Of a DNA stretch of 64,000 nucleotides, positions 1 to 48,781 are shown in pieces. The stretch is from Candidatus Daviesbacteria bacterium (GTDB lineage Bacteria > Patescibacteriota > Microgenomatia > Daviesbacterales > UBA10151). The stretch's first letter is position 1. The number at the start of each line of letters is the position of its first letter. The stretch covers positions 94,616-158,615 of the forward strand of contig JACPKL010000010.1 of assembly GCA_016187035.1 (NCBI GenBank), given 5' to 3'. Both the position numbers and the translations under genes were made by a program. The notes below the pieces were generated by a model. The model had not been told where the DNA came from and searched no databases. It saw only the letters and a list, made by a program, of their open reading frames with translations.

Positions 1-98
1 GATCATTTTCAGGTACCAGCTTGGCAGCAGGAATTTGTTTATGACCACGACTTACAAAAAACTTAATATATTTTTCCCTGATATCTTTTGAACTCATG
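1..98 (-). CDS. alaS: alanyl-tRNA synthetase, N-terminal fragment (gene runs off the window start)
   Basis: The minus-strand translation from the ATG at 96-98 reads MSSKDIREKYIKFFVSRGHKQIPAAKLVPENDP, a typical AlaRS N-terminus. Confidence 0.6.
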
Positions 99-115
99 AA
101 GGTATTTTACCTCAT

Positions 116-364
116 TTATCTTTTCATTAAAACTCGTTTATGGAATCTTTTAGGTTTTAATTTATACTCTTTCCTTTTTATTTCTGTTAAAGCCTTTGCC
201 TTTTCAGCTATCTCTGTTACCAAAGAAGTTGTAGTATTATTGTTAAATCTATCTAAAGTTTTTTTAAGATCTCTCAAAATAAAAAAGACCTGGACGCCAG
301 TTATTGCCAGAAAAATAGATAAAAGAAAAGTTAAAAAGATTAAAGCTATTTGCAGTAAATCCAT
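116..364 (-). CDS. small membrane protein, hypothetical
   Basis: 82-aa ORF with one hydrophobic helix, co-oriented with alaS and the rodZ-like gene. It competes with a low-complexity plus-strand ORF at 96..488. Confidence 0.3.
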   Translation of the reverse strand: MDLLQIALIFLTFLLSIFLAITGVQVFFILRDLKKTLDRFNNNTTTSLVTEIAEKAKALTEIKRKEYKLKPKRFHKRVLMKR

Positions 365-382
365 GGCGCTAAGTGTAACATA

Positions 383-1021
383 TCACCTTTTCAGAAAAAT
401 AGTCCTTTGTATTCTAGTTTGCTTACCGCTATTTGAAACAGCAGCAATAACGATGTTATTAACATTATCAGATAATTTAATAGTTTGAGAAAATCTTCCA
501 TTTTGATCAACAGCAATTTCTTGCTCATTAATATTCACCTTTACCTCAGGGTCTGTTCTACCTGAAATAACTATCTCTAAAGAACTTGTGCTAAATTGGT
601 CAGGTGGTTGACTAATTTCTAGACGCGGAGCACCAACCAAAAATCTATATTCAAACCAAAGGTATGTGAAAAAAATCACCACTAATGTTAAAACAACAAA
701 TCCTAAAACCCTAGCAGGAGTTATTCTAATTCTTGTTCTATTAATAGGATGACTGAATGATTCTAGGATCCTTGGAGGATGTTTTTGATCGGAAAATTCT
801 CTTCTAAACACTGCTAGAAGTTTATCTTTGTCAAGCCCTAAGAATTTACCGTAATTTTTAATAAATCCCTGAACAAAGGTTGGCGGGGGAAGTTTTTGAT
901 ATTGACCGGCCTCTAAAGCTTGTAGTAATTCTTTTCTAATTTTAGTTGCCTTTTCTACCTCATCAAGGGTATAGAATTTTTTTTCTCTTTCTTCTGCTAA
1001 AATTTGTCCTACAGTCCTCAT
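383..1021 (-). CDS. RodZ-like HTH (XRE) domain membrane protein
   Basis: N-terminal HTH (TLDEVEKATKIRKELLQALEAG), a central TM helix and an extracytoplasmic C-terminal domain. Confidence 0.55.
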   Translation of the reverse strand: MRTVGQILAEEREKKFYTLDEVEKATKIRKELLQALEAGQYQKLPPPTFVQGFIKNYGKFLGLDKDKLLAVFRREFSDQKHPPRILESFSHPINRTRIRITPARVLGFVVLTLVVIFFTYLWFEYRFLVGAPRLEISQPPDQFSTSSLEIVISGRTDPEVKVNINEQEIAVDQNGRFSQTIKLSDNVNNIVIAAVSNSGKQTRIQRTIFLKR

Positions 1022-1076
1022 TAATGGAATAATATACCAGTTGACAGATAAAGTCTAACAAATTAATATACAGTTA

Positions 1077-1574
1077 ATGTCCGATCAACAACCACTTCCA
1101 CCGCCCAGCGGTGACTGCGAAAAAGCAGAAAAATATATTAGCCAACTGATTAATCTAATTAAAATAGATAAGTTAACAGTTACCCATACTGATCTTTCTA
1201 AATTCGACCCCTCCTCCCTGCAAGATCACTATCGTCTGGATTTAAAAGACTATGAGATAGAAATTAGCCATAGCAAAGAACCTGATTCCGGACAAGATTT
1301 CTATGTAATTTTGTTCAACAACTTAAAATACATCAATCAACAATGCAGTGAAAAAGTAATCTTAGCTTATATGCATTTAAATGAGACTCTATTTATAAGC
1401 TTTAAAACAACTGCAGATGAGCAGTTAGAAAAGAACAGGAAGGAAGCTGAGGAAAAAAGATTTAAAGAAGCCATGAATCCAATTGACCAAGCACTTGAAC
1501 AGTTAACAAAATCGTCCTCAGGAGCTGATTTTTTAGAAAACACCGCTTTCCCTTCTCCCTTTGCTGCAACCTAA
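1077..1574 (+). CDS. hypothetical protein
   Basis: 165-aa ORF with no recognisable motif. Confidence 0.35.
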   Translation: MSDQQPLPPPSGDCEKAEKYISQLINLIKIDKLTVTHTDLSKFDPSSLQDHYRLDLKDYEIEISHSKEPDSGQDFYVILFNNLKYINQQCSEKVILAYMHLNETLFISFKTTADEQLEKNRKEAEEKRFKEAMNPIDQALEQLTKSSSGADFLENTAFPSPFAAT

Positions 1575-1587
1575 GTAAATGGAGTTA

Positions 1588-2148
1588 CTAAATTTTAAAT
1601 ATTCCTCGACGTAATATTTTTACTAAATTATTGTCAAAAGCAACTATTGTAGAAGGCTTTGACTCTCTATACCCTCCATCTAGATAGAAAGAAACTTTAT
1701 CTCCAAAATACTTCCTAGCTTGATTAATATTTGTTGCATGCTTTTTTCCTTCTAGATTTGCGCTTGGCGCAACTACAGGACCAGCCTCTCTTAAAATATT
1801 TAAAAGCTTCGTATCTTTGGGCATTCTAAAAGCTAAAGTATTTGTCCCTCTATGAAGATAGGAAAATCTCTGAACTTTACATGATAAAACTACACTCAAG
1901 GGATTTGGCCAATTCTTCTTCAGGAAATCCCTTTGGATATCAGTTAATTTAATATCAAATTTTTTTAAATCATCTATAGAAGAAATCAAAATAATCATTG
2001 GTTTATCTTTAACTCTTTTCCTTAACTTATAAATCTCTTCCACAGTATGAGGGTTAAAAGCTGATCCAATTAATCCGTAAATGGTGTCTGTGGGAATTAC
2101 CCCTATCTTGCCTTCTTTTAAGAATCTAACAATTTGTGAGAATTCCAT
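1588..2148 (-). CDS. tsaC: L-threonylcarbamoyladenylate synthase (YrdC/Sua5 family)
   Basis: PTDTIYGL motif, about 186 aa, YrdC-domain architecture. Confidence 0.8.
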   Translation of the reverse strand: MEFSQIVRFLKEGKIGVIPTDTIYGLIGSAFNPHTVEEIYKLRKRVKDKPMIILISSIDDLKKFDIKLTDIQRDFLKKNWPNPLSVVLSCKVQRFSYLHRGTNTLAFRMPKDTKLLNILREAGPVVAPSANLEGKKHATNINQARKYFGDKVSFYLDGGYRESKPSTIVAFDNNLVKILRRGIFKI

Positions 2149-2156
2149 TCTGATAC

Positions 2157-4253
2157 TTAAGCTGAGGAGCCTTGTTGGACGGCAAGATATTCTTCAGCAT
2201 TTTTAACTAACACATCTCTGGGTTTCGAACCTTCCCCTGTCCCTACAATTCCTGCGGTCTCCAACTCATCTAAAATCCTAGCAGCCCTAGCATAACCAAT
2301 TTTTAATCTTCTTTGTAGCAAAGAGGCTGAAGCCCGGTCGTATTGACACACTGTTCTGACTGCTTCCTCAAACAACTCATCTCTATCTTCACCATTACCT
2401 CCTTTGCTTCCTGCTTTACCCAAAGGCATCTCAGTTACTTCAGCAGTATATTGAGGAGCAATACCGGTAGCTTTCAGGTATTTAATTAAACTGTTTATTT
2501 CTGAATCTTGAACAAAAACTCCTTGAATTCTCATTGGTTTTGAAGCATCTGGAGGTAAAAATAACATATCCCCTCGGCCCAATAATTTTTCTGCTCCTGG
2601 TCCGTCTAAAATGACCCGAGAATCAACCATCGAGGATACATTAAAAGCAATCCTACAAGGAATATTAGCTTTAATCAAACCTGTGATTACATCAACAGAT
2701 GGTCTTTGAGTGGCTACTACCAAATGAATCCCTGTAGCGCGTGCCAGTTGAGCAATTCTGGTAATAGCATCTTCAATTTCTACTGGAGCAAACATCATTA
2801 AATCAGCCAGCTCATCAACAATAATGATAATATAGGGCAAAGCTTGGAATCCTGACATATCATTAAACCCAGCAATATTTCTTACTCCTGCTGATTGAAA
2901 TAATTTATACCTTCGGTCCATTTCTGCCATAGCCCATTTAAGAGAAGATAAGATTTTTTCTGGATCTGTAATAACAGGAGTGAGCAAATGAGGAATACCA
3001 TTATAATTTGTCAATTCCACTCTTTTGGGATCGATCAAAATCAGTTTTAATTCATCTGGTGAATTTCTAAATAGTAAAGAGGTGATCACCGCATTTAACA
3101 TGATTGATTTACCTGAACCTGTGGTACCAGCGATTAAACAGTGAGGCATTCGGTCAATATCTACTATCATGGCCTTAGATGAAGTATCCCTTCCTAAAGC
3201 AACTGCTAATTTTGACTTATGCCTTCGCATCTCATCAGAGGCTAATAATTGTTTTAATCCAACGACCTCCAACGACCTGTTTGGCACCTCTATTCCTACT
3301 AAAGATTTACCGGGAATAGGAGCTTCTATCCTGACCGTACCAGTGGGTGTAGCTAAAGCTAAAGCCAAATCATGTTGTAGATTAGCTATTTTGGAGATTT
3401 TGGTACCTGCTGATATTTCTAAAGCATATTGAGTAACAGCCGGACCACCATTTACCTCTGCTACTCTGGCTTGTATACCAAAAGAGTCTAAAGTCCTTTC
3501 TATAATAGCTGCACTTTTTTTAACATCACCTCTGTCAGCTGGAGAACCAACTTTATCAGATAATAAAGATAGCACCGGGTATTTCCATACTTTTGATTGT
3601 CCAGCCATATTCTGCACTAAAGCATCTGCAATAATAGGCTCTTTGGTAAAAACTGGCGTATTCCTTACTTGAGGCTTCTCATCTACCCCGTAAACCTTAA
3701 TTGGAATATGTTTGGCCTCAAATGTTCTTTGTCTTACGAACAAGGATTTAAAAAGATTCTTTGCTGCTCCAAATACAAAACCAAATATTTTTAAGATTTG
3801 ATTCAAAGAAGTATTAAAAAGAACTACCAAACCCACTAAAAACAACAATATTAATAAGGCTGCTCCTCCAAAAGGAGTAACAAAAGAGGCTAATTCTCTC
3901 CAAAACAATTGTCCAATTAGACCTCCTTTTTCATATTTTAGTGCAGCTATCAAAGAAGAGAGTGCGATAACTATTAATAAAAAGCCCAGTAATACATTAG
4001 TTTGAGCAAATCTCCATTTCGCTTTTGTTAAAACAAGTCCTGATAACAAAAAAATAATAGGCGCAACTATACTCATCAAACCAAGTGTATTCATTAAAAA
4101 ATCTTTCCAAAAAGTTAACGTTTCAGACTGTGTTGTTAAAGCAACTATTGATACAACAGCTAAAATAAAAGCGATTAATGTTCCCACTGCAGTGATTGTT
4201 TTTTGTCTTAACTTTAGTTTGGGTAATTTATAAACAGAGCGTCTTCTAGACAT
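2157..4253 (-). CDS. ftsK: DNA translocase FtsK/SpoIIIE
   Basis: N-terminal TM helices, Walker A GTTGSGKS and a C-terminal winged-helix (gamma) region. Confidence 0.9.
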   Translation of the reverse strand: MSRRRSVYKLPKLKLRQKTITAVGTLIAFILAVVSIVALTTQSETLTFWKDFLMNTLGLMSIVAPIIFLLSGLVLTKAKWRFAQTNVLLGFLLIVIALSSLIAALKYEKGGLIGQLFWRELASFVTPFGGAALLILLFLVGLVVLFNTSLNQILKIFGFVFGAAKNLFKSLFVRQRTFEAKHIPIKVYGVDEKPQVRNTPVFTKEPIIADALVQNMAGQSKVWKYPVLSLLSDKVGSPADRGDVKKSAAIIERTLDSFGIQARVAEVNGGPAVTQYALEISAGTKISKIANLQHDLALALATPTGTVRIEAPIPGKSLVGIEVPNRSLEVVGLKQLLASDEMRRHKSKLAVALGRDTSSKAMIVDIDRMPHCLIAGTTGSGKSIMLNAVITSLLFRNSPDELKLILIDPKRVELTNYNGIPHLLTPVITDPEKILSSLKWAMAEMDRRYKLFQSAGVRNIAGFNDMSGFQALPYIIIIVDELADLMMFAPVEIEDAITRIAQLARATGIHLVVATQRPSVDVITGLIKANIPCRIAFNVSSMVDSRVILDGPGAEKLLGRGDMLFLPPDASKPMRIQGVFVQDSEINSLIKYLKATGIAPQYTAEVTEMPLGKAGSKGGNGEDRDELFEEAVRTVCQYDRASASLLQRRLKIGYARAARILDELETAGIVGTGEGSKPRDVLVKNAEEYLAVQQGSSA

Positions 4254-4292
4254 AATTCATTATATATTATACCATACTTACTATAGGTTCTA

Positions 4293-5984
4293 TCACACTT
4301 CTACTATTATAGATAAAATCAATGGCCTTCTTAGAGTAGCTTGATAAAAAAACCTTTCCAAGGTATCCTCAACTAATTTCCGCGTAAATCTCCAGTCTGA
4401 AATTTTATGATGATGCTTATCTAAGTTATTTTTTAATAAAGTTTTAGCCTCATCTAACAATCCGCCAGATTGTTCCTCAAACACAAAACCCCTTGAGATT
4501 ACATCTATTTCTCCCTCTGATTTACCGCTATGTTGATCAATCGGCACAACCACCACCACTATTCCTTCCTCACTCATAACTTTTCTATCTCTTAACACCA
4601 CATGTCCTACATCACCAATCCCTAAACCATCCACAAAAACATTTTGCACCTCAATTCGATTTGATACTTTCATATTATCTGGTTTCACTTCTAAGATATC
4701 TCCGTCTAGAACTTGTAAGATTTTGTCTGTTTCATAACCCATGTTTGTAAAAACTTGAGAAAACTTTTTCATATGTCTGTAGGTCCCTCCAATTGGCATC
4801 ATAAATTTTGGTTTAATTAAATTTACCATAAGTCTTAATTCTTCCAAAGCTGCATGTCCTGAAACATGCAAAGAATCTGTAATAGCTGAATAATAAACAT
4901 TCGCTCCGAGTGTAGTTAAAGAATCAATTAAAGCATTTTGAGCAGATTCAGTAGAAGGAATTGGATCTGCTGAAAAAAGTACACTATCCCCCACTTTTAA
5001 TTTGATCAGTTTATGCTCTTCATTGGCAACTCTTGATAAAGAAGAATCTGGCTGACCTTGAGCTCCAGCAATTAAGACTAATAATCTATTAGGAGCAAAA
5101 GAATTAATAGCATCTGAAGCTATCATAACTGAAGGAGGAACATGTAGATAACCTAAATCTCTTGATACTTGAAAATTATTTTCAAAAGATCGCCCTACTA
5201 CAGCAACTTTTCTACCTAATCTTTGGGAAACATTAATTGCTTGCTGCATTCTGGAAACATTTGAGGATGTCATAGTTATCAGTAACTTCCCTTTAGTTTC
5301 CCGCGCAACCTGTTCAAAAGACTCCTCAATTGATTTTTCTGACTTATTAAAACCAGGTTTGTCTATTCTTAAGCAATCTATTAGTAGCAGTAAAACGCCT
5401 TCTGCTCCCAGACGGGAAACTGTTGATACATCAGTTACTTGTCCTGAAACTGGTGTCCAATCTATTTTAAAATCTGCTTGATGAATAATCAAACCAACTG
5501 GAGTTCTTAAAACTACTCCTGTTGAATCAGGCACAGAGTGAGAAACTTGATAAAAAGAAACTTTAAAACATCCTAAATTTAACTCCTCGTTAATTTTTAC
5601 TTCAAATATTTTATTTTTAGGTAAATTGTGTTCAGAAAATTTTGCTTTAATAAATCCAGCAGTAAGTTTTTGAGTATAAATAGGTACTTGAAGCTCTGGC
5701 CAAATATATGGTAATCCTCCTATATGATCTTCATGACCGTGAGTAATGATTATTCCTCTGATTTTATTTATTCTTTCCCGAAGATATGATATATCAGGAA
5801 TAACCAAATCCACACCTGGCATAGCTTCATCAGGGAAACCAACCCCACAATCTATAATGACAATATCATTATCATATTCATAAATATACATATTTTTGGT
5901 AACATCACCTACTCCACCTAAAGGAATTAATTTTAAACTCTGCCCTTTATCTAACATAAATTGCTTTGGGTGAAATATCTTCAT
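4293..5984 (-). CDS. rnj: ribonuclease J
   Basis: Metallo-beta-lactamase HGHEDHIGG motif with the beta-CASP architecture, 563 aa. Confidence 0.9.
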   Translation of the reverse strand: MKIFHPKQFMLDKGQSLKLIPLGGVGDVTKNMYIYEYDNDIVIIDCGVGFPDEAMPGVDLVIPDISYLRERINKIRGIIITHGHEDHIGGLPYIWPELQVPIYTQKLTAGFIKAKFSEHNLPKNKIFEVKINEELNLGCFKVSFYQVSHSVPDSTGVVLRTPVGLIIHQADFKIDWTPVSGQVTDVSTVSRLGAEGVLLLLIDCLRIDKPGFNKSEKSIEESFEQVARETKGKLLITMTSSNVSRMQQAINVSQRLGRKVAVVGRSFENNFQVSRDLGYLHVPPSVMIASDAINSFAPNRLLVLIAGAQGQPDSSLSRVANEEHKLIKLKVGDSVLFSADPIPSTESAQNALIDSLTTLGANVYYSAITDSLHVSGHAALEELRLMVNLIKPKFMMPIGGTYRHMKKFSQVFTNMGYETDKILQVLDGDILEVKPDNMKVSNRIEVQNVFVDGLGIGDVGHVVLRDRKVMSEEGIVVVVVPIDQHSGKSEGEIDVISRGFVFEEQSGGLLDEAKTLLKNNLDKHHHKISDWRFTRKLVEDTLERFFYQATLRRPLILSIIVEV

Positions 5985-5996
5985 AAGAGCGTTGAG

Positions 5997-7022
5997 TTAT
6001 CCTGTCAAGTAGTCTCCTAAATTATCTGAATTAATCTTAAACGGCCCACTTTGTCCTTCTACCATTTTTCTTGCAACCTTTCGGCAAATTGTTTGCAGTG
6101 TTCTTGCTAAAGATCTTATACCAGCGTCAAAACCTAAAGGACGAATAATCTGTGGCCAAATAGAATCATCAATCTGTAAAATATTATTATCTATTCCTGC
6201 TTCTTCTAATGCTTTTGGCAAAAGATAGTTTTTACCTATTATTTGCTTTTCTTCATCAGTAAAGCTGGGCATTTGAATTGGTTCTATCCTATCTAAAACT
6301 GCTGTTGCTATATTTGATGTATTATTGGCTGTAGCTATAAAAAGAACTTGTGATAAATCATAAGGAAAATCCAAATAATGATCTACAAAAGCTTGGTTTT
6401 GGCTGGGGTCCAAAAGCTCTACTAAAATCCCCATAATATCAACTCTATGCTCTTGAGCTACTCTATCTATTTCGTCAAGTAAAATAACCGGGTTTGAAAC
6501 TTTGGCTAGTCTAACAGCTTTGATAATTTGACCTGGTTCTGCTTCAGCTCTCTGGCGTGATTGGCCACGAAGCAAATTCGGATCACCCAAACCTCCAAAC
6601 GGAATCCTGACAATCGGCCTGCCTAGACTTTCTGCTATTGAATAAGCAAGAGAAGTTTTACCTGTTCCTACCAAACCAATAAAAGCTAAAATTGGGGCAT
6701 GTCCTTCGACTCGCTGACGCTGCGGATTTCTTCTGTTTAAAATCATGACTGCTAGGTATTCTAAAATCCTATCCTTTACCACTTGTAGGCCATAATGATT
6801 TTTATCCAGGATTTGTTTTGTGCGGTTAATGTCTAATATATCAGTAGAATTTTTATTAAAAGGCAGGGAAATTACAAAATTAATATAAGCTACTAAACTT
6901 GATAGTTCATGTATCCCAGAAAATTTCAAAGCAGTTAAGAGTTTCTCTGATACCTCAGGAGGTAAATTAGCTTGGGTAATTTTTATTTTTAGTTCTTCAA
7001 GACTTAATCGGGCAGAATCCAT
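5997..7022 (-). CDS. Lon-family AAA+ ATPase module only (no LON N-domain, no S16 protease domain)
   Basis: Aligns to E. coli Lon about residues 270-600: HYGLxxVKDRILEYLAV, Walker A GLVGTGKTSLA, LLDEIDR and a C-terminal AGIRSLxRxLxxICRK sensor region. The flanks are RNase J and a 125-bp intergenic region. Confidence 0.75.
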   Translation of the reverse strand: MDSARLSLEELKIKITQANLPPEVSEKLLTALKFSGIHELSSLVAYINFVISLPFNKNSTDILDINRTKQILDKNHYGLQVVKDRILEYLAVMILNRRNPQRQRVEGHAPILAFIGLVGTGKTSLAYSIAESLGRPIVRIPFGGLGDPNLLRGQSRQRAEAEPGQIIKAVRLAKVSNPVILLDEIDRVAQEHRVDIMGILVELLDPSQNQAFVDHYLDFPYDLSQVLFIATANNTSNIATAVLDRIEPIQMPSFTDEEKQIIGKNYLLPKALEEAGIDNNILQIDDSIWPQIIRPLGFDAGIRSLARTLQTICRKVARKMVEGQSGPFKINSDNLGDYLTG

Positions 7023-9128: not shown

Positions 9129-11507
9129 TTAACGGTCAAATCCGCCTCTACCACCGCGACCTCCGCGGTCTCTTCCGCCTCTACCAAATCCACCAGTTCT
9201 GCCTCTCCCTCCAAACCTATCCTGGGTTCTATCAAAGGACCCGCCACTTCTACCGCCTCCACTGCCAAAGCTTGGACGATTACCAAATCCTCCACTTCTG
9301 GGTCTACCCGCTTCGCCAAAGCGAGGCGAATCGCCAAAAGAGGAACGAGATCTAAAACCTCCGCCTTCTCTCGGTCTAAAATTTCCACCACCAGTAGGCC
9401 TCCCCTCGGTCTCTGGTTTAATATTTGCCCCAAAAAGCATTGATAAACCAATCTTTCCGTCAGGAGAAACATCAGTTACCCTAACCTTTACCTCTTGACC
9501 TTCTAAGACTACATCTTCTGGTCTGTTAACATGTCCAGGTGCCATTTGGGAAATATGCACCAACCCATCTTTGCCAGGAGCAATTTCTACAAACGCCCCA
9601 AACGGAGCAAGTCGCACGACCCTACCACTCAACTCATCTCCTACATTAAAGCTTTTAAACATACCATGAATAGAAGCAATTGCTGCATCAACTCCTTCGG
9701 GATTGACGCCTGAGATCATCACTGTCCCATCATCCTCGATATCAATTTGAGCGCCTGTTTTAGAAATAATTGAGTTAATAGTTTTTCCACCTGTGCCGAT
9801 TAAAAGCCCTATCTCTTCTGGTTTGATATGCAAAATTTCAACTCTTGGGGCATGAGGAGATAAAGGCCCTGCACTAGGAATAACTTTATCCATTTGTTCT
9901 AAAAGTTGTATCCTGGCTTTGCCACCCATATTAAGGGCTTGCTCAATTATGTCAAAGGTTAAACCTTCCAGCTTAGTATCCATCTGAATGGCAGTAATTC
10001 CATTTTTAGTACCTGCTATTTTAAAATCCATCTCTCCGTAAAAGTCTTCCACTGCCCTCATATCTGTTACTACCTGAGTTTTTTTCTCATCGGAAAACAG
10101 CCCCAATGCAATTCCAGCAACAGGCTCTATCAGAGGTACACCAGCATTCAGTAAAGCTAAAGTGGTTCCACAAACTGCAGCCATAGAAGTTGAGGCATTG
10201 GCTGCTAATACTTCAGATACTACTCTGATTGCGTATGGGAATTGATCTTCTTTTGGAACAACTGCTATGATGGCTTTTTCAGCCAAAGCACCATGACCAA
10301 TATCACGTCTGTTAGGAGCAGCCAGTCTTTTAACCTCACCTACAGAAAATGGATTAATACTCATATTATAATGGTGCATAAACCTTTTTTGTCTTTCCCC
10401 TTCCATCCCATCCAAAGTTTGCTTCAAAGAAGGAGCCCCCAGTGTTACAACAGATAAAACTTGAGTGTCTCCTCTTTGGAAAAGTGCGCTGCCATGAGTT
10501 CTTGGCAAAATTCCAACTTCTATCTGAATTGGCCTAATCTCATCCATAACTCTCCCATCTACTCTTTTACCTTTTTCCAAAACCTCTTTCTGTAAAATTT
10601 CTTTGGCAACTTTGTCAAAAATGCCTGATATAACTTGTTCTGTTAAAGCTTCTGCGTATTGGGTAGCAAGCTCTTTTTTAATCAAATCACCAGTTGCCTC
10701 ATGCCAAGGGTGCTCATTATCAAACAAAGCCTTTTCGATTCGTTCTTTGGTAATTTTAGATACTTCTTTAAGTAACGCCTCTTCAATTTCCTCCTCTAGA
10801 TGGGAGTAGGTCTGTTTCGTTTTACCAGCAACTTTCCCAAATTCTTCAATCAAAGAAATAATTGGTTGGGCTTGTGCATAAGCTTCTTTAATCCCTGCAA
10901 AAACTAACTCGTCTTTAACCTGATTAGCCCCTGTTTCTATCATGACAACTTTGTCTTTGGTAGAAGCTACTAAAAGATCCATATTAAGATGTTCTATCTC
11001 ATTAATAGTGGGATTGACTACTAAACTGCCTTCTCTTTCACCGATTCTTACTCCAGCAATTGGGCCTTTCCAAGGAATAGAAGAGATAGATAAAGCAGCT
11101 GATGCACCGATTAAACCAACAATATCAGGATCGTTTGCCTGATCTACAGATAATACAGTCAAAATTACTTGCACCTCATGCATTTTAAAATCTTTAGGAA
11201 AAAGCGGGCGGATGGAACGATCCACTAATCTGCCTGTTAAAACAGCTTCATCAGTGGGTCTAGTCTCTCTTTTGATAAATTTTGAGGAAGAAATTCTACC
11301 TCCAGCATAATGTTTTTCTACATACTCAACTGAGAGAGGAAAATAACCAATATCTTCTTTTAAAGGTTGTGTGGCAACTGTTGCTAAAATTACAGTTTCA
11401 CCCCAAGACACTAAAACAGAAGCATCTGCTTGCAGAGCTAACTTGCCTGTTTCTAATTTCAACTTACGACCATTAAGATCGATTTCTTTTACTATAACTT
11501 TGTTCAT
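9129..11507 (-). CDS. pnp: polyribonucleotide nucleotidyltransferase (PNPase) with a C-terminal Arg/Gly-rich (RGG) tail
   Basis: Two RNase PH domains, KH and S1 domains, then an RGG/FGG tail of about 95 aa encoded by GC-rich DNA at 9129-9420. Confidence 0.95.
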   Translation of the reverse strand: MNKVIVKEIDLNGRKLKLETGKLALQADASVLVSWGETVILATVATQPLKEDIGYFPLSVEYVEKHYAGGRISSSKFIKRETRPTDEAVLTGRLVDRSIRPLFPKDFKMHEVQVILTVLSVDQANDPDIVGLIGASAALSISSIPWKGPIAGVRIGEREGSLVVNPTINEIEHLNMDLLVASTKDKVVMIETGANQVKDELVFAGIKEAYAQAQPIISLIEEFGKVAGKTKQTYSHLEEEIEEALLKEVSKITKERIEKALFDNEHPWHEATGDLIKKELATQYAEALTEQVISGIFDKVAKEILQKEVLEKGKRVDGRVMDEIRPIQIEVGILPRTHGSALFQRGDTQVLSVVTLGAPSLKQTLDGMEGERQKRFMHHYNMSINPFSVGEVKRLAAPNRRDIGHGALAEKAIIAVVPKEDQFPYAIRVVSEVLAANASTSMAAVCGTTLALLNAGVPLIEPVAGIALGLFSDEKKTQVVTDMRAVEDFYGEMDFKIAGTKNGITAIQMDTKLEGLTFDIIEQALNMGGKARIQLLEQMDKVIPSAGPLSPHAPRVEILHIKPEEIGLLIGTGGKTINSIISKTGAQIDIEDDGTVMISGVNPEGVDAAIASIHGMFKSFNVGDELSGRVVRLAPFGAFVEIAPGKDGLVHISQMAPGHVNRPEDVVLEGQEVKVRVTDVSPDGKIGLSMLFGANIKPETEGRPTGGGNFRPREGGGFRSRSSFGDSPRFGEAGRPRSGGFGNRPSFGSGGGRSGGSFDRTQDRFGGRGRTGGFGRGGRDRGGRGGRGGFDR

Positions 11508-11521
11508 GATTTATATTCTTT

Positions 11522-11645
11522 GGACGATAGAATATAGATAATAGAGGATAGTGTTTTTGAAAATAGAAGATAGATATTAGATCGCTTCTAACTTCTATTT
11601 TCCATCTTCAAAATACTACCTTCTACATTCTACCATCTATCGTTC
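11522..11645 (-). promoter_or_regulatory. long imperfect inverted repeat (about 50-bp arms) between rpsO and pnp, a candidate RNase III-processed pnp leader or rpsO terminator
   Basis: The arm at 11522-11573 (ggacgatagaatatagataatagagg...) pairs with the arm at 11587-11645 (...ccttctacattctaccatctatcgttc). Confidence 0.5.
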
Positions 11646-11673
11646 TACTTTACAACAGTAAAGCAAGCTATGC

Positions 11674-11943
11674 TTATTTTGCCAGACCCAACTTCTCTAT
11701 CACTATTTTGTATCTCTCTTCATCCTTTTTAACTAAATATTGTAAAAGTCTTCTTCTTTTATTCACCATTGATAACAATCCACGTCTTGAGTGAATATCA
11801 TGAGTATGTTCTTTTAAGTGAGCGGTCAGATTTTTAATTTGTTCTGTAAGAAGCGCTACCTGAACTTCCGGTGAACCTGTATCGCCACTTTTTGTGGCAA
11901 ACTCTTTAATAATCTTTTGCTTAAGCTTTGGATCAAGTGGCAT
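11674..11943 (-). CDS. rpsO: 30S ribosomal protein S15
   Basis: 89 aa with a typical S15 sequence (HSRRGLLxMVxKRRRLLxYL). Confidence 0.95.
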
Positions 11944-12080
11944 CTTTAATCTCCTTTTTTAGGAACAACTTTGATGCCAAAGTCGTCCTTTAATTTATCC
12001 TGGGCGTATCTTAACAGAAGTTCTAAGATTATGCAAGCTTTGCTTATAGTCTGATTTCCACACCGAATGTGGAAATTCAG

Positions 12081-12530
12081 TTAAGGTTTAGAGAGTCTAC
12101 CTGAGGCTATTTGTGATTCTAATTCTGTCCTACGTCTCTCCAATTCTAAGGCTAGTTTCTCATTTAAACCCTCAAGCACAACAAGTTCATTTTCAGCACC
12201 ACCATTTCTTAAATAATCTTGATAACTCAGATCTACTACTCTTTCCTCCATACAAGCATTTTCTTTAACTAGATCCAGCGCCGAGGCAGTACTCCTGCTG
12301 TTAGACATACCCATTCTTTCCTCCATTTTTCTAATATTATTTTCACTTGCGGTTTGATATGCTTTTAGTAAAATATCTTGCTTATCTGTTTCACCAAGTT
12401 TAGTTATCTGTAATTCTCTGGCAGTTTGGCGCAAATCACCTCTGGCTGCAGCAGCTTTTGCTCGCTCATCAGCTCCTTTGCCAAATAAGCTTCCTCTAAG
12501 AGAGGTTAAAATTCCTGGTTCTTGTGCCAA
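12081..12530 (-). CDS. hypothetical coiled-coil protein
   Basis: 149-aa ORF with no family recognised. Confidence 0.35.
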   Translation of the reverse strand: MAQEPGILTSLRGSLFGKGADERAKAAAARGDLRQTARELQITKLGETDKQDILLKAYQTASENNIRKMEERMGMSNSRSTASALDLVKENACMEERVVDLSYQDYLRNGGAENELVVLEGLNEKLALELERRRTELESQIASGRLSKP

Positions 12531-43097: not shown

Positions 43098-43760
43098 TTG
43101 CAAAACTATTACCGGCATTTATCCAAACATGGTGCTCACAAAATCATGATAGGAATTGATGGAGAAATAAACTCTCTGGTAGCAGCTAAATTATTAAAAC
43201 AAGCCTTAGAGGAAAACGTTGTAGCTTTGGTTTTTGATTTTGGAGGGGTACAAACAAATGACTTAGTAAACTTCTGTAGACAGCTGGGGCTTGAAACTTA
43301 TATTTTACAGCGAGGGCAAGCTTATCAATCTGAAGTTTCTGCCTACCGTCTTCATAAACCGTCTGGCCTTAGCAGTTTTTATAAGCGCTTTATTAATTAT
43401 CATTTACTTATCCAGGCAGATCATATGAAAACTGTATTAGTTGATACTTTTGATAAAAGCGACAGATTATTAGGTATGAAACCTGAAGGCTTTTATGGCC
43501 ACTTGATGCCATTTTACTCTTTATATAAATCAGAAATATGCGAGTTGGCTAAATTTTTGGGCATTCCTGCTGTACCTACCAATTATCAGGGCTTACCCTG
43601 GGATAAGATTGACCCGGTATTATATTTACTGACTGAGAAACAACTTAAGATAGAGGATATTTCTAAAGAACACAATATAGATCTACACTGGTTAAGAAGT
43701 TTAAAGATTCATGTTAATAAACAACTTTTCCAGACAACCATCAGCCAGTTTATAATTTAG
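43098..43760 (+). CDS. NAD synthetase (NadE)-like PP-loop-fold protein with a degenerate SGGxDS motif
   Basis: IGIDGEINS stands in place of SGGxDS. C-terminal LYKSEICELAKFLGIP is NadE-like. Confidence 0.5.
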   Translation: MQNYYRHLSKHGAHKIMIGIDGEINSLVAAKLLKQALEENVVALVFDFGGVQTNDLVNFCRQLGLETYILQRGQAYQSEVSAYRLHKPSGLSSFYKRFINYHLLIQADHMKTVLVDTFDKSDRLLGMKPEGFYGHLMPFYSLYKSEICELAKFLGIPAVPTNYQGLPWDKIDPVLYLLTEKQLKIEDISKEHNIDLHWLRSLKIHVNKQLFQTTISQFII

Positions 43761-43785
43761 CACAGGCTTTTTAGCGCTATTTCTA

Positions 43786-43822
43786 TTGACAGGAAAGTAT
43801 TACTATGCTAGTATAGCAATAC
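43786..43822 (+). promoter_or_regulatory. sigma70-like promoter (TTGACA-17-TAGTAT) overlapping an imperfect palindrome/direct repeats (TACTATGC x2), a candidate vapB operator
   Basis: -35 at 43786-43791 and -10 at 43809-43814. Palindrome gtattactatgctagtatagcaatac at 43797-43822. Confidence 0.5.
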
Positions 43823-43859
43823 TATGCAAGTAGGTATTACTCATGGAAGAAACATTACT

Positions 43860-44120
43860 ATGAGAGAATTGGAAACCACCCTGACGCAGAAGGGTCAAGT
43901 GACAATCCCCGTGGAGATCCGTTCCCGCCTGGGCCTGAAACCGAAAGATAAGGTGCGGTTTGAAGTGGAGGGGGATGAAGTCAAGATCAAGCCCGCGCCC
44001 TCGCGCATTGCCCGCCACTTTGGGGCGGTGGCTGTATCTGGAAAGTCGCTGGATTGGCGAGTCGAGCGGAAGGCGTTTGAGGAAGGCGTGGCCGAGGAGG
44101 TAGTGGCCGAGGATCGGTGA
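43860..44120 (+). CDS. vapB: AbrB/MazE (SpoVT-AbrB) family antitoxin VapB
   Basis: TLTQKGQVTIPVEIRSRLGLKPKDKVRFEVEGDEVKIKP swapped-hairpin motif in GC-rich DNA. Overlaps vapC by 4 bp. Confidence 0.75.
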   Translation: MRELETTLTQKGQVTIPVEIRSRLGLKPKDKVRFEVEGDEVKIKPAPSRIARHFGAVAVSGKSLDWRVERKAFEEGVAEEVVAEDR

Positions 44121-44542
44121 TGTCTATGCCACGCTTCCTGGACACCAATATCCTGCTGCGCTACTTCACAGGCAGTGGTAGCGAGAAGGCCCTGGCAGCC
44201 AAAGTACTGCTTGAGCGCATAGAACAGAGCGAGGAGAAGGTAGTCATCTCCGTACTGGTGGTGTTTGAGACAATTTTCACCCTACAGCGCACCTACAAGG
44301 TGCCCAAGGTCAAGATCCGCGAGATGGTCGGCGATGTGATCGCCCTGCGCGGTGTCCAACTCACGGGCAAACGGCTATGCTTGCAAGCCTTGGATCTCTA
44401 TGTGGGAAAAAACATCTCCTTCGCCGACGCCTACAACGTCATCTACATGCAGTCGCAGCAGTTCTCGGAGATCTACAGCTGGGATACCGACTTTGACAGG
44501 ATCGAGGGCATTACTCGCATTGAGCCAGCCCAGGATATGTAA
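44117..44542 (+). CDS. vapC: PIN-domain toxin VapC
   Basis: FLDTNILLRYF N-terminal PIN motif and conserved acidic residues, in GC-rich DNA. Confidence 0.8.
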   Translation: MMSMPRFLDTNILLRYFTGSGSEKALAAKVLLERIEQSEEKVVISVLVVFETIFTLQRTYKVPKVKIREMVGDVIALRGVQLTGKRLCLQALDLYVGKNISFADAYNVIYMQSQQFSEIYSWDTDFDRIEGITRIEPAQDM

Positions 44543-44647
44543 GATTTCAATGTTGAAATACCGTATTTTTCAATCCTCTAGCCTTAAAACATTGAAAAAC
44601 TACCTAAACTTTGACTGAAATCTTACAGTATATGTTAATATAGGCAG

Positions 44648-46651
44648 ATGCCCACTTCGCAAAAGCTCAGTGTAAACTTTCTTGATGACTTAAATTCCAT
44701 TCAACAAAAAGCGGTTAAAACAACTGAGGGACCGGTATTAATTTTGGCCGGGGCTGGCTCCGGCAAAACCAGGGTGTTAACTTACCGCGTAGCTTATTTG
44801 ATTGCTGAGAAAAAGATTCCTCCTGAAAATATCCTTTGCCTGACCTTCACAAATAAAGCTGCTGGAGAAATGATGGATCGTATTTTAAAACTTTTGGACC
44901 ACCAGCTACCAGCTACTAACTACCAACTACCTATTATGGGCACTTTTCATTCTTTTTGTGCCAAAATCCTAAGACGTGATGGCAAAGCCTTAGGATTGCC
45001 TCCTGGCTTTACCGTATATGATGAATCCGATGCATTAGATGCTATAAAAGAAGCTATGGGTAATTTGAATATTCCGACCCAAAAAACTTCTCCTTTTTCA
45101 GTAAGACACACTATTTCTTCAGCTAAAAATGAATTAATTTCTGCACTTGAATACCCACAATATGCCAGAGGGTATTTCCAGGAAACTGTAGCTAAAATTT
45201 ATTTAGAATATCAGAAGATTTTAGAGAAAAATAAAGCCCTGGATTTTGATGACCTGCTGCTGACAACTATTAAGCTGTTTCAAACAGAACCAGCTATATT
45301 GACCCGCTATCAAATTCAATTCCGTTATATCTTAATAGATGAATACCAGGATACCAACCCTGCTCAATATCTGATTTCAAAATATTTAGCAAACAGGCAT
45401 AAAAATATTTGTGTAGTCGGGGATGCTTCACAATCTGTGTATTCTTTCAGAGGAGCAGATTTCAGAAACATTGTTAATTTTCAAAAAGACTACCCAAACG
45501 CTAAAGTTTTTAACCTGGAGCAAAATTACCGCTCTACCCAAAATATCCTGGATGCAGCCCATGCTGTAATTTCTAAAAATAAATTACATCCTATTTTGAA
45601 ACTTTGGACAAATAAAAATGGGGGAGAAAAAATTGAAATAGTGGAGGTAAGAAATGAAATTGAGGAAGCTCTATTTATCTTGTCCACCATAGATCACCTC
45701 CGAGGTGTAAGCGCATTTTTTCACCTCGGAGGTGTAGCCGTGCTTTATAGAACTAATGCCCAATCCCGTGCTTTAGAAGAACAATTTTTAAAATCTGGTA
45801 TCCCTTATAAATTAGTTGGTGGAGTAAGCTTTTACGAGAGAAGAGAGATTAAAGATATTTTATCCTACCTTAGGTTACTGCAAAATCCTAAGGACTCTGT
45901 ATCTTTAAAAAGAGCAGAAAAAATTGGCAAAGGAAGACTGGGAAAAGTTTTAGGATTCTCAGCGTCATTGCGGGGAATCGGACCGAGCGAAGCCAAGTCA
46001 GACTTGGTTTCGCCAAGTCTGACTTGGCGAAGCGAGGGAGATCGCTTGCAAAATGCGAAGCATTTTGACAAGGGCTCGAGTGAAACGAGCGGCCCTTCAG
46101 GCCTCGGAATGACCACAATCGAGCTATTAGATCAACTTCTAGCAAAAACAGGCTATTTGGCTTATTTGGATGATGGAACAGATGAAGGAGGGGGCAGGGT
46201 GGAAAATGTTAAAGAACTTAGGTCGGTAGCAGAAGAGTTTCCTAGTTTAGTCCAATTTTTAGAGAACGTGGCTTTGGTGGAAAATGGTTTTCTGCCTTCT
46301 TCTGAAAAAAATATTCAGCAAGACGTAGTAACTTTAATGACCCTGCATTCTGCTAAAGGCTTGGAGTTTCCGACAGTTTTTATGGTAGGAATGGAGGAAG
46401 GACTATTCCCCCATTCACGCTCTATGCTAAATCCTCAGGAACTTGAAGAGGAAAGAAGGCTTTGTTATGTGGGCATCACCAGGGCAAAAGAAAAATTATA
46501 TTTAACTTACAGCAGGCAAAGATTATATTTTGGCACCAGATCTAATAATTTAGTTTCCCGCTTTTTATCTGATATTCCCCAAGACTTAATTTCCTCTAAC
46601 ACAAACTTCAAAAACCAAGATCAAGATAATGAAGATTGGTTAAACACATGA
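44648..46651 (+). CDS. uvrD: ATP-dependent DNA helicase UvrD/PcrA, carrying an in-frame palindromic insert
   Basis: AGAGSGKTRVLT Walker A and UvrD motifs throughout. Insert at about 45965-46113. Confidence 0.9.
   Translation: MPTSQKLSVNFLDDLNSIQQKAVKTTEGPVLILAGAGSGKTRVLTYRVAYLIAEKKIPPENILCLTFTNKAAGEMMDRILKLLDHQLPATNYQLPIMGTFHSFCAKILRRDGKALGLPPGFTVYDESDALDAIKEAMGNLNIPTQKTSPFSVRHTISSAKNELISALEYPQYARGYFQETVAKIYLEYQKILEKNKALDFDDLLLTTIKLFQTEPAILTRYQIQFRYILIDEYQDTNPAQYLISKYLANRHKNICVVGDASQSVYSFRGADFRNIVNFQKDYPNAKVFNLEQNYRSTQNILDAAHAVISKNKLHPILKLWTNKNGGEKIEIVEVRNEIEEALFILSTIDHLRGVSAFFHLGGVAVLYRTNAQSRALEEQFLKSGIPYKLVGGVSFYERREIKDILSYLRLLQNPKDSVSLKRAEKIGKGRLGKVLGFSASLRGIGPSEAKSDLVSPSLTWRSEGDRLQNAKHFDKGSSETSGPSGLGMTTIELLDQLLAKTGYLAYLDDGTDEGGGRVENVKELRSVAEEFPSLVQFLENVALVENGFLPSSEKNIQQDVVTLMTLHSAKGLEFPTVFMVGMEEGLFPHSRSMLNPQELEEERRLCYVGITRAKEKLYLTYSRQRLYFGTRSNNLVSRFLSDIPQDLISSNTNFKNQDQDNEDWLNT
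45965..46113 (+). repeat. GC-rich palindromic element (GTCATTGCGGGG...CCTCGGAATGAC termini) inserted in-frame in uvrD
   Basis: Imperfect 12-bp terminal inverted repeats, internal palindromes ccaagtcagacttgg x2, and GC far above the local value. The ORF stays open across it. Confidence 0.65.
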
Positions 46652-47890: not shown

Positions 47891-48106
47891 ATGAGACGAA
47901 TTCATTCTGTTACCTGGAAAGAAGATAAGTGGTATGTGGCTAAAGCTCTTGAGTTAGAGATAGCTAGCCAGGGAAAAACCCAGAAAGAAGCTCTTGATAA
48001 TTTAAAAGAAGCATTAGAATTATATTTTGAAGATCAATCTAAAGTAGAACTATCACCTGTTAGTAAACCTAAACTTCAAGATTTATCCATCCAGGTTAAT
48101 GCCTAA
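47891..48106 (+). CDS. hicB: HicB-family antitoxin
   Basis: WKEDKWYVAKALELEIASQGKTQKEALDNLKEALELYFED, HicB/UPF0150. Confidence 0.75.
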   Translation: MRRIHSVTWKEDKWYVAKALELEIASQGKTQKEALDNLKEALELYFEDQSKVELSPVSKPKLQDLSIQVNA

Positions 48107-48323
48107 ACTATATTCTGCCAGAGTCATCATTCATGCTTTACAAAGAGCAAATTTTGAGGTTATTAGTCAGAAAGGCAGTCATATTAAACTGCATAAAAAA
48201 GAGGGAGAAAAATCTTCTACAGTGATCGTTCCTAATCACAAAGAAATAGCCATCGGGACTTTTAACAGTATCTTAAAACAAGCAGGAATAACACGAAAAG
48301 TGCTTGAAGAATTTATTAGATGA
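48099..48323 (+). CDS. hicA: HicA-family mRNA interferase toxin
   Basis: VIIHALQRANFEVISQKGSHIKL...ILKQAGI, YcfA/HicA fold. Overlaps hicB by 8 bp. Confidence 0.75.
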   Translation: MPKLYSARVIIHALQRANFEVISQKGSHIKLHKKEGEKSSTVIVPNHKEIAIGTFNSILKQAGITRKVLEEFIR

Positions 48324-48358: not shown

Positions 48359-48781
48359 TTATAATCTCTCTAAATATTTTAAAATTTCAGCCCCAAATTG
48401 ACGGAGATCTTTTAAGTCCTCTTTATAATCTTTAAAAAGAAGATGGAAGTCGAAATCATTATAGCCGTGTACAACTCTATTTCTAAAATCTGCTGCCTGA
48501 CCCATTTCAAAAGCTAGCTCTTTTGATATAATTCCTTTTTCTCCTAAAAAGCTAAAGGCATCTTTTGCTGTCTCTTTTTCAGATACATTAAGCCCGGCAA
48601 TAGTATGGGCTGCAATATCAATGCAAGTTTCAACTCCCTGCTGCAAACGGAAAACCACCAAATCATGAATATCAGGGTTTTCCACAAAAGTTTCTTCACT
48701 AAAATCCATGTTCTCAATTTTTTGGGTTTGTTCGTTCAGAAAATCCAGTTTTTTGGCAATTAAAGATTTATTAACCGGCAT
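48359..48781 (-). CDS. hepT: HepT-like (DUF86) toxin
   Basis: FRNRVVHGY (Rx4HxY) motif near the C-terminus. Confidence 0.75.
   Translation of the reverse strand: MPVNKSLIAKKLDFLNEQTQKIENMDFSEETFVENPDIHDLVVFRLQQGVETCIDIAAHTIAGLNVSEKETAKDAFSFLGEKGIISKELAFEMGQAADFRNRVVHGYNDFDFHLLFKDYKEDLKDLRQFGAEILKYLERL

Follow-up and report, generated by a model that had tools for sequence, protein, structure and literature searches.

A GC-rich vapBC cassette adjoining a transposon-end-like repeat upstream of uvrD in a Candidatus Daviesbacteria genome

How does a toxin-antitoxin (TA) cassette rich in guanine plus cytosine (GC) come to stand between two low-GC genes, a nadE-like gene and uvrD, in a Candidatus Daviesbacteria genome? 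The question is raised by a 64,000-nucleotide stretch of contig JACPKL010000010.1 (assembly GCA_016187035.1, positions 94,616 to 158,615), which as a whole is referred to here as the window, and in which a vapBC islet adjoins a 90-bp repeat element, here called E, that lies just upstream of uvrD. The vapBC cassette was almost certainly acquired by horizontal transfer, and it very probably sits at a capture hotspot upstream of uvrD that is defined by E. As an explanation of the whole, we incline to the view that vapBC is a TA cassette surviving at an E-defined, IstAB-linked capture site, to which it would have been joined by cointegration and where it would then have been trimmed; IstAB cointegration as the joining mechanism is offered only tentatively. 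The vapBC islet is in itself ordinary, a routine acquired addiction module whose main use is as a clear indication that genes have passed from higher-GC bacteria into the ultra-small genome of a bacterium of the candidate phyla radiation (CPR). What is of interest is its setting: at one chromosomal site, diverged relatives repeatedly have a short transposon-end repeat together with an IS21-type transposase that is inherited vertically, and these bracket arrays of compositionally foreign DNA.

Foreign composition and horizontal origin of vapBC

The segment 43860-44542 has a GC content of 0.561, compared with a mean of 0.365 for the window, and ranks first among all 683-bp segments of the 64 kb (+5.4 standard deviations; standard deviation, 0.037). 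The runner-up, with a GC content of 0.479, is the Arg/Gly-rich (RGG) tail of PNPase; other GC peaks in the window were considered as additional islets and rejected, the largest, near 9141, being the PNPase tail. GC content climbs from about 0.33 to 0.36 in the flanks to 0.54 to 0.62 across approximately 43860-44500, and GC at third codon positions (GC3) is 0.69 in vapB and 0.75 in vapC versus 0.32 to 0.33 in the neighboring nadE-like gene and uvrD. A preliminary description of this DNA, made without database searches, had placed a GC-rich vapBC islet between these two genes and had proposed a comparison of GC content and codon usage, and both the islet and the contrast are borne out by these values. 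The junction between the nadE-like gene and vapBC is 100% identical in two further assemblies (Logan SRR12113430 and SRR12113422), which indicates that the left junction is not the chimera of a single assembly. Judged by every sequence feature tested, the pair belongs to the VapBC family, and the islet is an intact type II module of a predicted translationally coupled AbrB-fold antitoxin and PIN RNase toxin. The earlier reading of the two genes as an AbrB/SpoVT-type antitoxin and a PIN-domain VapC agrees with their Pfam matches (Table 1).

The preliminary description had also suggested looking for relatives in which the nadE-like gene and uvrD adjoin each other without the insert. A genome-contig scan with the nadE-like protein returned one relative, L001 (locus handles of this form are used below where loci have to be told apart), which is too few for a survey of presence and absence, and this relative has the empty site. 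Its gene order is a hypothetical gene, the nadE-like gene (51% protein identity), uvrD, and a 3D-domain gene, and the spacer between the nadE-like gene and uvrD is 23 bp without an insert. In a closer relative, L010 (UvrD N terminus, MPTSTKLSVNLLDDLNP), the same interval holds other content, namely, a low-GC PIN pair on the opposite strand, the 90-bp repeat, 360 bp of GC-rich DNA, and a partial repeat. The differing contents of L001 and L010 indicate that the nadE-uvrD interval is a site of fast turnover.

The vapBC clade comprises five DNA copies (the window, L002, L003, L004, and L025), with pairwise DNA identities of 81 to 85% in a common alignment. The BLAST matches to the other four copies all begin at 43786, the first base of the -35 hexamer, and end at 44496-44531, and the exact start of homology at 43786 indicates that the AT-rich promoter and operator region belongs to the cassette and not to the host. 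This region is kept even in L004, a contig of 64% GC with an RsgA gene of 68% GC. A BLAST comparison with higher-GC phyla was also proposed in the preliminary description. The closest named VapBC relatives are from Chloroflexi; near-identical cassettes (79 to 84% DNA identity by BLAST) are found in contigs of 52 to 64% GC, and, in the common alignment, cassettes of about 81 to 85% identity are found in contigs of 48 to 64% GC that lack E. On the best explanation, vapBC was taken from a higher-GC donor pool. The window copy carries about 58 private changes, 41 of them from GC to AT and 13 from AT to GC (approximately 3:1 toward AT), versus 21 and 30, respectively, in the copy on the 64% GC contig. 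The AT-biased changes indicate that the cassette has been resident for long enough to begin drifting toward host composition, from which it is still far. The earlier claim of a recent horizontal acquisition is thus upheld as to transfer, by the composition and the empty site of L001, while recency holds only in the relative sense given by the 41 and 13 changes. The cassettes of the window and L003, both of which lie by uvrD, may be sister copies of one ancestral capture or separate captures, the distances among the five copies being star-like.

Element E at the right-hand boundary

E occurs once in the window and is absent from the GC-rich vapBC contigs in a profile search, which indicates that it belongs to the host lineage and not to the cassette. 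The vapC stop codon (TAA, 44540-44542) falls inside the first five bases of E. The islet was regarded in the preliminary description as an insertion standing alone, and this has to be revised, since the foreign DNA stops on its right side where the host-lineage element begins. The perfect inverted repeat atttcaa-tg-ttgaaat that it reported downstream of vapC is present (44544-44559) and lies inside the left terminal repeat of E, so that it is part of E and not of the TA module; other E copies read GTTATTAT at this place. A role of this 7-2-7 repeat as an intrinsic terminator was rejected, as it has no T-tract, is not called by a terminator scan, and is not conserved among E copies.

E contains four GATTTCAATGTT-like repeats in the order L1, L2 / R2, R1, two direct and two inverted, with copies at positions 6-17(+), 29-40(+), and 51-62(-) of the element and at its right terminus. 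The ends of E are nearly invariant and read TGTAAGA...TCTTACA in the consensus and the 17 aligned copies, and the center is a variable hairpin (hairpin potential, z = -4.8). The consensus ends in CA and has TTGACT 11 nucleotides (nt) from the right end. Published IS21 ends likewise terminate in CA, carry a pair of repeats within each terminal repeat, and contain a -35 hexamer on the right (PMC10122671), and E is built like two abutted IS21-type terminal repeats. Just as the TTGACT of the window copy probably serves a uvrD promoter (Table 1), the -35 hexamer inside E in sister loci pairs with a TATAAT ahead of istA, after the last E. No matches to the right end of E turned up in a scan of viral contigs. 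Rfam searches of 43500-44900 at a permissive threshold and of the whole window at the gathering threshold found nothing relevant and no tRNAs, which indicates that E is not a known RNA and that the islet is not targeted to a tRNA.

E loci, arrays, and cargo in related genomes

A metagenome scan with the right end of E yielded 18 loci, and further loci came from IstA look-ups. E lies on the strand of uvrD at every locus, the sole exception being one inverted copy in L029. Two layouts are found upstream of uvrD, one in which E is followed by 39 to 43 bp, istA, istB, uvrD, and the 3D-domain gene and one in which E is followed by uvrD after 20 to 60 bp. In L001 and L029, E also occupies a second position, with FemAB on one side and a DOT1-like methyltransferase on the other. 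Arrays of two to five E copies in the same orientation are present, with five copies in L019, four in L018, three in L006, and two at several loci; within an array, the istA-proximal copies are identical and the distal copy differs. The E-flanked segments are 36 to 2,695 bp long, and 11 of 12 distinct segments have GC contents of 0.47 to 0.64, against 0.30 to 0.37 for native DNA. The switch in GC content is visible within 200 bp on either side of the E ends, and the outermost E copies stand where native DNA gives way to foreign DNA. The cargo is mostly unannotated, lies in both orientations, and includes some genes that are cut at E, such as one for a radical SAM protein; a possible N-terminal fragment of an M23 peptidase was noticed by eye from a HAGID motif and has no Pfam match. 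In L019, the two ends of the cassette at 3628-6322 carry the same 7-bp sequence, CTGTATG, as an exact direct repeat, which is expected by chance at about 6e-5 per cassette. Circularizing this cassette at the repeat lengthens an open reading frame (ORF) from 227 to 294 codons, which is not significant in DNA of 55 to 60% GC.

TA modules adjoin E in four cases, namely, the vapBC of the window, an AT-rich vapBC in L029, hicBA in L001, and the PIN pair in L010. In L003, E lies upstream of its vapBC, which in turn is upstream of uvrD. In L001, E follows the hicBA pair and abuts an istA truncated at residue 176, and this arrangement looks like the signature of an adjacent deletion. The L029 pair (56-841, minus strand) is a low-GC AbrB/PIN pair 29 to 40% identical to that of the window, with the inverted E 5 bp further on; this copy faces away from uvrD, two direct copies lie 9 kb off, and the locus looks like the product of an inversion between E copies. 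A 36-bp mini-cassette in L011 (1071-1106; GC content, 0.64) stands between a partial and a complete E and may be nearly fully trimmed. Two membrane-anchored proteins with similar N termini are encoded in separate cassettes of L019 (1786-2776 and 3628-6322), as are two similar proteins of 200 to 270 amino acids (aa) in L006 (1152-2238 and 2329-3701), and such paralogous cargo suggests that related donors were drawn on more than once or that the cargo is under selection.

The istA and istB products of the sister loci pass the NCBIfam models of IS21 (IstA NF033546, 197 bits with a cutoff of 160; IstB NF038214, 204 bits with a cutoff of 200). Their amino acid identities track those of UvrD in six of six pairs drawn from four lineages, with IstA, IstB, and UvrD values of 60.5, 64.8, and 61.3% in pair 1, 75.4, 77.0, and 76.1% in pair 2, 76.0, 83.6, and 75.9% in pair 3, 58.7, 62.2, and 60.9% in pair 4, 58.8, 60.9, and 61.8% in pair 5, and 73.3, 80.3, and 72.7% in pair 6. 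The list of IstA homologs forms a graded series of clusters, nearly all of them on one or a few contigs. Unlike a free insertion sequence, istA-istB is, by this record of codivergence, inherited vertically with the host. In L032, a distant IstA (48% identity, 423 aa; 207-2286) has an E-like end (60-86, ...ATTGAAAACTTACA) about 120 bp upstream, and the accompanying istB overlaps the convergent host gene that follows it; an arrangement with upstream ends and no right repeat may therefore extend past the uvrD-linked clade.

A capture-and-trimming model and its alternatives

From these arrangements, we infer the following order of events. The junctions of foreign DNA with the chromosome would fall precisely at the ends of E and would arise when IstAB transposes E replicatively into a circular DNA that has entered the cell, with a cointegrate as the result. 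Cointegration is classic IS21 behavior, and this route is proposed because it is the simplest chemistry that gives direct transposon repeats around a whole foreign segment. Subsequent intramolecular events from the E ends would delete adjacent DNA and trim the cassettes. Such deletions would explain the truncated cargo genes, the truncated istA of L001, the missing duplications, and the loss of istAB at those loci where E now sits 20 to 60 bp from uvrD. Deletions would be tolerated until they touched an addiction module, as loss of the antitoxin would kill the cell, and the finding of four different TA pairs beside E in different genomes fits the reading of these modules as survivors of trimming. 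In the genome studied here, the left E copy and istAB would have been lost, and the foreign remainder would be the minimal functional TA unit, from the -35 hexamer to the vapC stop codon.

Several observations weigh against this reconstruction. The istAB genes lie to the right of a complete E and outside it, with no terminal repeat 3' of istB, whose stop codon abuts the next gene (TAAATG) at both chromosomal positions, so that a right terminal repeat could not fit in between. About 50 N-terminal positions of the IS21 profile are missing from IstA, whose clade, at identities of at least 57%, consists of proteins of about 390 aa that start at position 50 of that profile. Cointegration leads one to expect a target duplication at both ends of a cassette, which is observed once, in 1 of 12 cassettes. 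The cassette of the window has no E at its left edge, and there is no istAB in the 64 kb. The star-like distances among the five vapBC copies leave one ancient capture inseparable from several independent ones. The order within arrays crosses identical 90-bp repeats and could be partly misassembled, and L018 and L009, which come from one sample, disagree on one cassette.

The strongest competitor, which we nevertheless consider unlikely, is a one-off insertion of vapBC by illegitimate recombination, with E being an unrelated host repeat or miniature inverted-repeat transposable element (MITE) that stands upstream of uvrD by chance. The left junction, 43761-43785, would suit it, having no repeat and no target duplication, as would the single E and the lack of a transposase in the window, and few genes are transferred as commonly as those of VapBC modules. 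Against this, the foreign DNA stops at the first base of E, which provides the vapC stop codon, the composition switches at E ends in more than 10 other cases, and in L003, another vapBC of the clade is likewise found next to E and uvrD. With so many coincident boundaries, a chance adjacency of E and foreign DNA is not expected. It is improbable that E is an ordinary MITE that came later than the foreign DNA, with repeated insertions into a preexisting GC-rich island and a preference for such DNA or for TA loci. The TG...CA inverted ends, the compactness, and the hairpin potential of E are those of a MITE, but individual copies have no target duplications, and the sequences on either side of them are not contiguous genes. 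In addition, their orientation is uniform and polar toward istAB and uvrD, the outermost copies mark the boundary of native and foreign DNA, and 64 kb contain a single copy.

Still less probable is an integron-like platform in which E is an attC-type site for a tyrosine recombinase encoded elsewhere. Repeats in the same orientation do part cassettes at a fixed site, and TA cassettes are found among them as in sedentary chromosomal integrons (PMC13108822). However, the gene tables of L029 to L032 contain no gene of the IntI/integrase family (Phage_integrase), and the attC cores RYYYAAC and GTTRRRY are absent from the consensus and the 17 aligned copies of E. Truncated genes lie in both orientations, vapBC has its own promoter, and the conserved neighbors are istA and istB. 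Least credible of all is a metagenome assembly artifact in which GC-rich fragments of other organisms are joined through a shared repeat, for although many assembly k-mers or reads exceed the 90 bp of E and two contigs of one sample differ by one cassette, the nadE-vapBC junction is free of repeats and recurs identically in two other assemblies, the architecture is found in Hainich ERZ1292623, JGI, OBEQ01, Logan, and NCBI metagenome-assembled genomes from different projects and assemblers, and the GC-rich organism would need many identical AT-rich copies of E.

Capture at E followed by trimming thus remains the explanation that we prefer. A broader proposition, which we regard as speculative, is that Daviesbacteria-like Microgenomates of the CPR keep a domesticated IstA/IstB with E as its only substrate, a transposase-based, integron-like platform before uvrD that would stitch in mostly GC-rich foreign DNA, possibly from host or neighbor cells, with TA cassettes as stabilizers. 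Full-text literature searches found no account of IstAB-linked repeat arrays in CPR bacteria; this absence is not proof of novelty, and the E/IstAB platform appears to be undescribed. Should the joining be the work of the transposase, the locus would be a device that captures genes by transposition chemistry and not by site-specific recombination of the integron type. It would then matter for our understanding of how DNA from other cells enters and stays in episymbiotic CPR bacteria, and it would offer a concrete case of TA modules that persist by resisting the deletions that erase neighboring cargo.

Genes, promoter, and operator of the module

The acidic residues D9, E51, D104, and D127 of VapC are invariant among 20 homologs, and D123 and D125 are nearly so. 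An exact-sequence look-up of the 138-aa VapC found none on record. Possible vapC starts are GTG 44117, ATG 44120, and ATG 44126, the last being used by NCBI. The vapB stop codon TGA (44118-44120) shares 1 nt with ATG 44120 (TGATG), an AGGA lies 6 nt 5' of this ATG, and the same 1-nt overlap is called in L002 to L004. ATG 44120 is favored because VapC homologs begin with MPxPRF and because of the AGGA; it is most likely the start, and GTG 44117 is less likely. The 4-bp overlap of vapB and vapC given in the preliminary description assumed GTG 44117 and gives way to one of 1 nt.

The vapB start is probably ATG 43860, as had been proposed, and not the in-frame ATG 43824, which would give a protein of 98 aa. 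ATG 43860 has a GGAAG 10 nt upstream and fits homologs of 85 to 88 aa, and NCBI calls the 86-aa form (P0121). In distant VapB homologs, the conserved K-G codons ahead of the internal Met spell AAGGG, and such a ribosome-binding site also favors the internal start. On the other side, ATG 43824 sits 9 nt past the -10 box, about one-fourth of the 120 homologs listed are called with the extension (97 to 99 aa), and two close homologs have no internal Met, so that the Met of the extension is their only one. The earlier argument for the later start from the low GC content of the first codons is withdrawn, since the low-GC leader is the promoter and operator region of the cassette itself.

The TTGACA-17-TAGTAT promoter described earlier was found, with a TG extension in addition, and it is predicted to be a sigma-70-like promoter of the cassette's own. 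The imperfect palindrome and the two direct repeats reported over it are also present: the palindrome (43796-43823) is 86% self-complementary, and TACTATGC occurs at 43801-43808 and 43820-43827. A further GTATTAC lies at 43834-43840, and ATTACTATG lies at 43854-43862. Across cassettes, the dyad reads GTATTAC-N4-CTAG-N4-GYAATAC, with self-complementarity at 20 to 24 of 26 positions in four cassettes, and promoter and dyad are retained in five genomic contexts. Dyad positions 4 and 8 covary, being T/T in the window and A/A or C/C in L003 and L004. Symmetric changes of this kind are the pattern expected of a protein-binding operator, and the dyad is accordingly termed a probable operator of VapB or VapBC.

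Table 1. Features at the nadE-uvrD interval of the window
Feature	Position	Strand	Basis
nadE-like PP-loop protein, left flank, host	43098..43760	+	GC 0.35; Pfam NAD_synthase 1.1e-12 (weak)
Cassette promoter (predicted), TTGACA (43786-91)-17-TAGTAT (43809-14), TG extension	43786..43814	+	Promoter scan and cassette homology
Probable VapB(C) operator, 26-bp dyad GTATTAC-N4-CTAG-N4-GCAATAC over the -10 box	43797..43822	.	Symmetric covariation
vapB, AbrB/SpoVT-fold antitoxin, 86 aa (probable start)	43860..44120	+	PF04014 (MazE_antitoxin/AbrB) 3.8e-12; TIGR01439 6.4e-12
vapC, PIN-domain toxin, 140 aa from ATG 44120 (most likely start)	44120..44542	+	PF01850 1.1e-13
Element E, 90-bp double terminal-repeat element, TGTAAGATTTCA...TGAAATCTTACA	44538..44627	+	Perfect 12-nt terminal inverted repeats
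Probable uvrD promoter, outward-facing -35 TTGACT (in right end of E), 18-nt spacer, TTAATA	44611..44640	+	Sequence
uvrD, right flank, host	44648..46651	+	Pfam UvrD-helicase 2.5e-89; synteny with many loci

Neighboring genes

The nadE-like protein scores 53.9 bits against the NCBIfam NAD synthase model, whose cutoff is 255, and is thus far under the family threshold. About 38 aa are inserted in frame in the uvrD product of this genome (approximately 45985-46110, codons 446 to 488 or so), and three orthologues lack this insertion; its local GC content is about 0.49 to 0.50, it contains a strong palindrome, GCCAAGTCAGACTTGG...CCAAGTCTGACTTGGC, and it may be a small palindromic element in the helicase linker. 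Downstream of uvrD are further TA-type genes, namely, a hicB-hicA pair of native composition with overlapping genes (47891-48323, plus strand; 71 and 74 aa) and, adjoining it, an ORF for a HepT/DUF86-like HEPN toxin with the motif RNRVVHGY (48359-48781, minus strand). Inteins were seen in relatives and not in the window. In L010, one interrupts thioredoxin at the CxxC site (3354-5132) and another lies in the P-loop of UvrD, after GSGK (reverse strand). L029 encodes a UvrD of 1,098 aa with Intein_splicing and LAGLIDADG matches (1054-4350), and the uvrD of L007, split between 9295-10458 and 11542-12303, is probably also interrupted by an intein.

Comparison with known systems

The islet resembles VapBC modules with AbrB/SpoVT antitoxins in having the antitoxin gene before the toxin gene, a stop/start overlap, and an AbrB DNA-binding domain at the N terminus of the antitoxin; its PIN domain keeps all the acidic residues, and its dyad overlaps the -10 box. 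It differs from them in nothing essential, and what sets it apart is its CPR Daviesbacteria host, the strong contrast in composition, and the position against E.

In sedentary chromosomal integrons, such as the Vibrio superintegron, TA cassettes have their own promoters and are thought to guard the array against loss (PMC13108822). The E loci share with them the TA cassettes and the same-orientation repeats that part cassettes at a fixed chromosomal site. However, E loci are linked to a DDE transposase and an AAA+ helper, the repeats have TG...CA ends, and the cassettes are fragmentary and lie in either orientation.

Closer likenesses are found with IS21, including IstA and IstB in the sister loci, TG...CA ends with two repeats per end, and a -35 hexamer in the right end that is paired with a -10 hexamer just outside. 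Tandem IS21 copies reportedly act as a cointegrase in plasmid R68.45, with foreign replicons flanked by direct copies as the outcome. E differs from IS21 in that both ends are abutted in one 90-bp unit with the transposase genes outside. In addition, istAB of the E loci is single copy and codiverges with UvrD, and IstA is short at its N terminus. Target duplications of 4 to 8 bp flanking E copies were looked for and not found, and the behavior of a mobile multicopy element is not seen, as the clusters lie on few contigs and at only two chromosomal positions across genomes.

RAYT transposases, which are IS200/IS605-like, are domesticated and single copy, and the REP/REPIN sequences associated with them are spread genome-wide. 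REPINs are not known to flank foreign DNA arrays at a single site. The E loci are like the REP/REPIN-RAYT system in combining a vertically inherited, single-copy transposase with short palindromic repeats as its presumed substrate, and they differ from it in that the transposase is of the IS21 family and not IS200/IS605-like.

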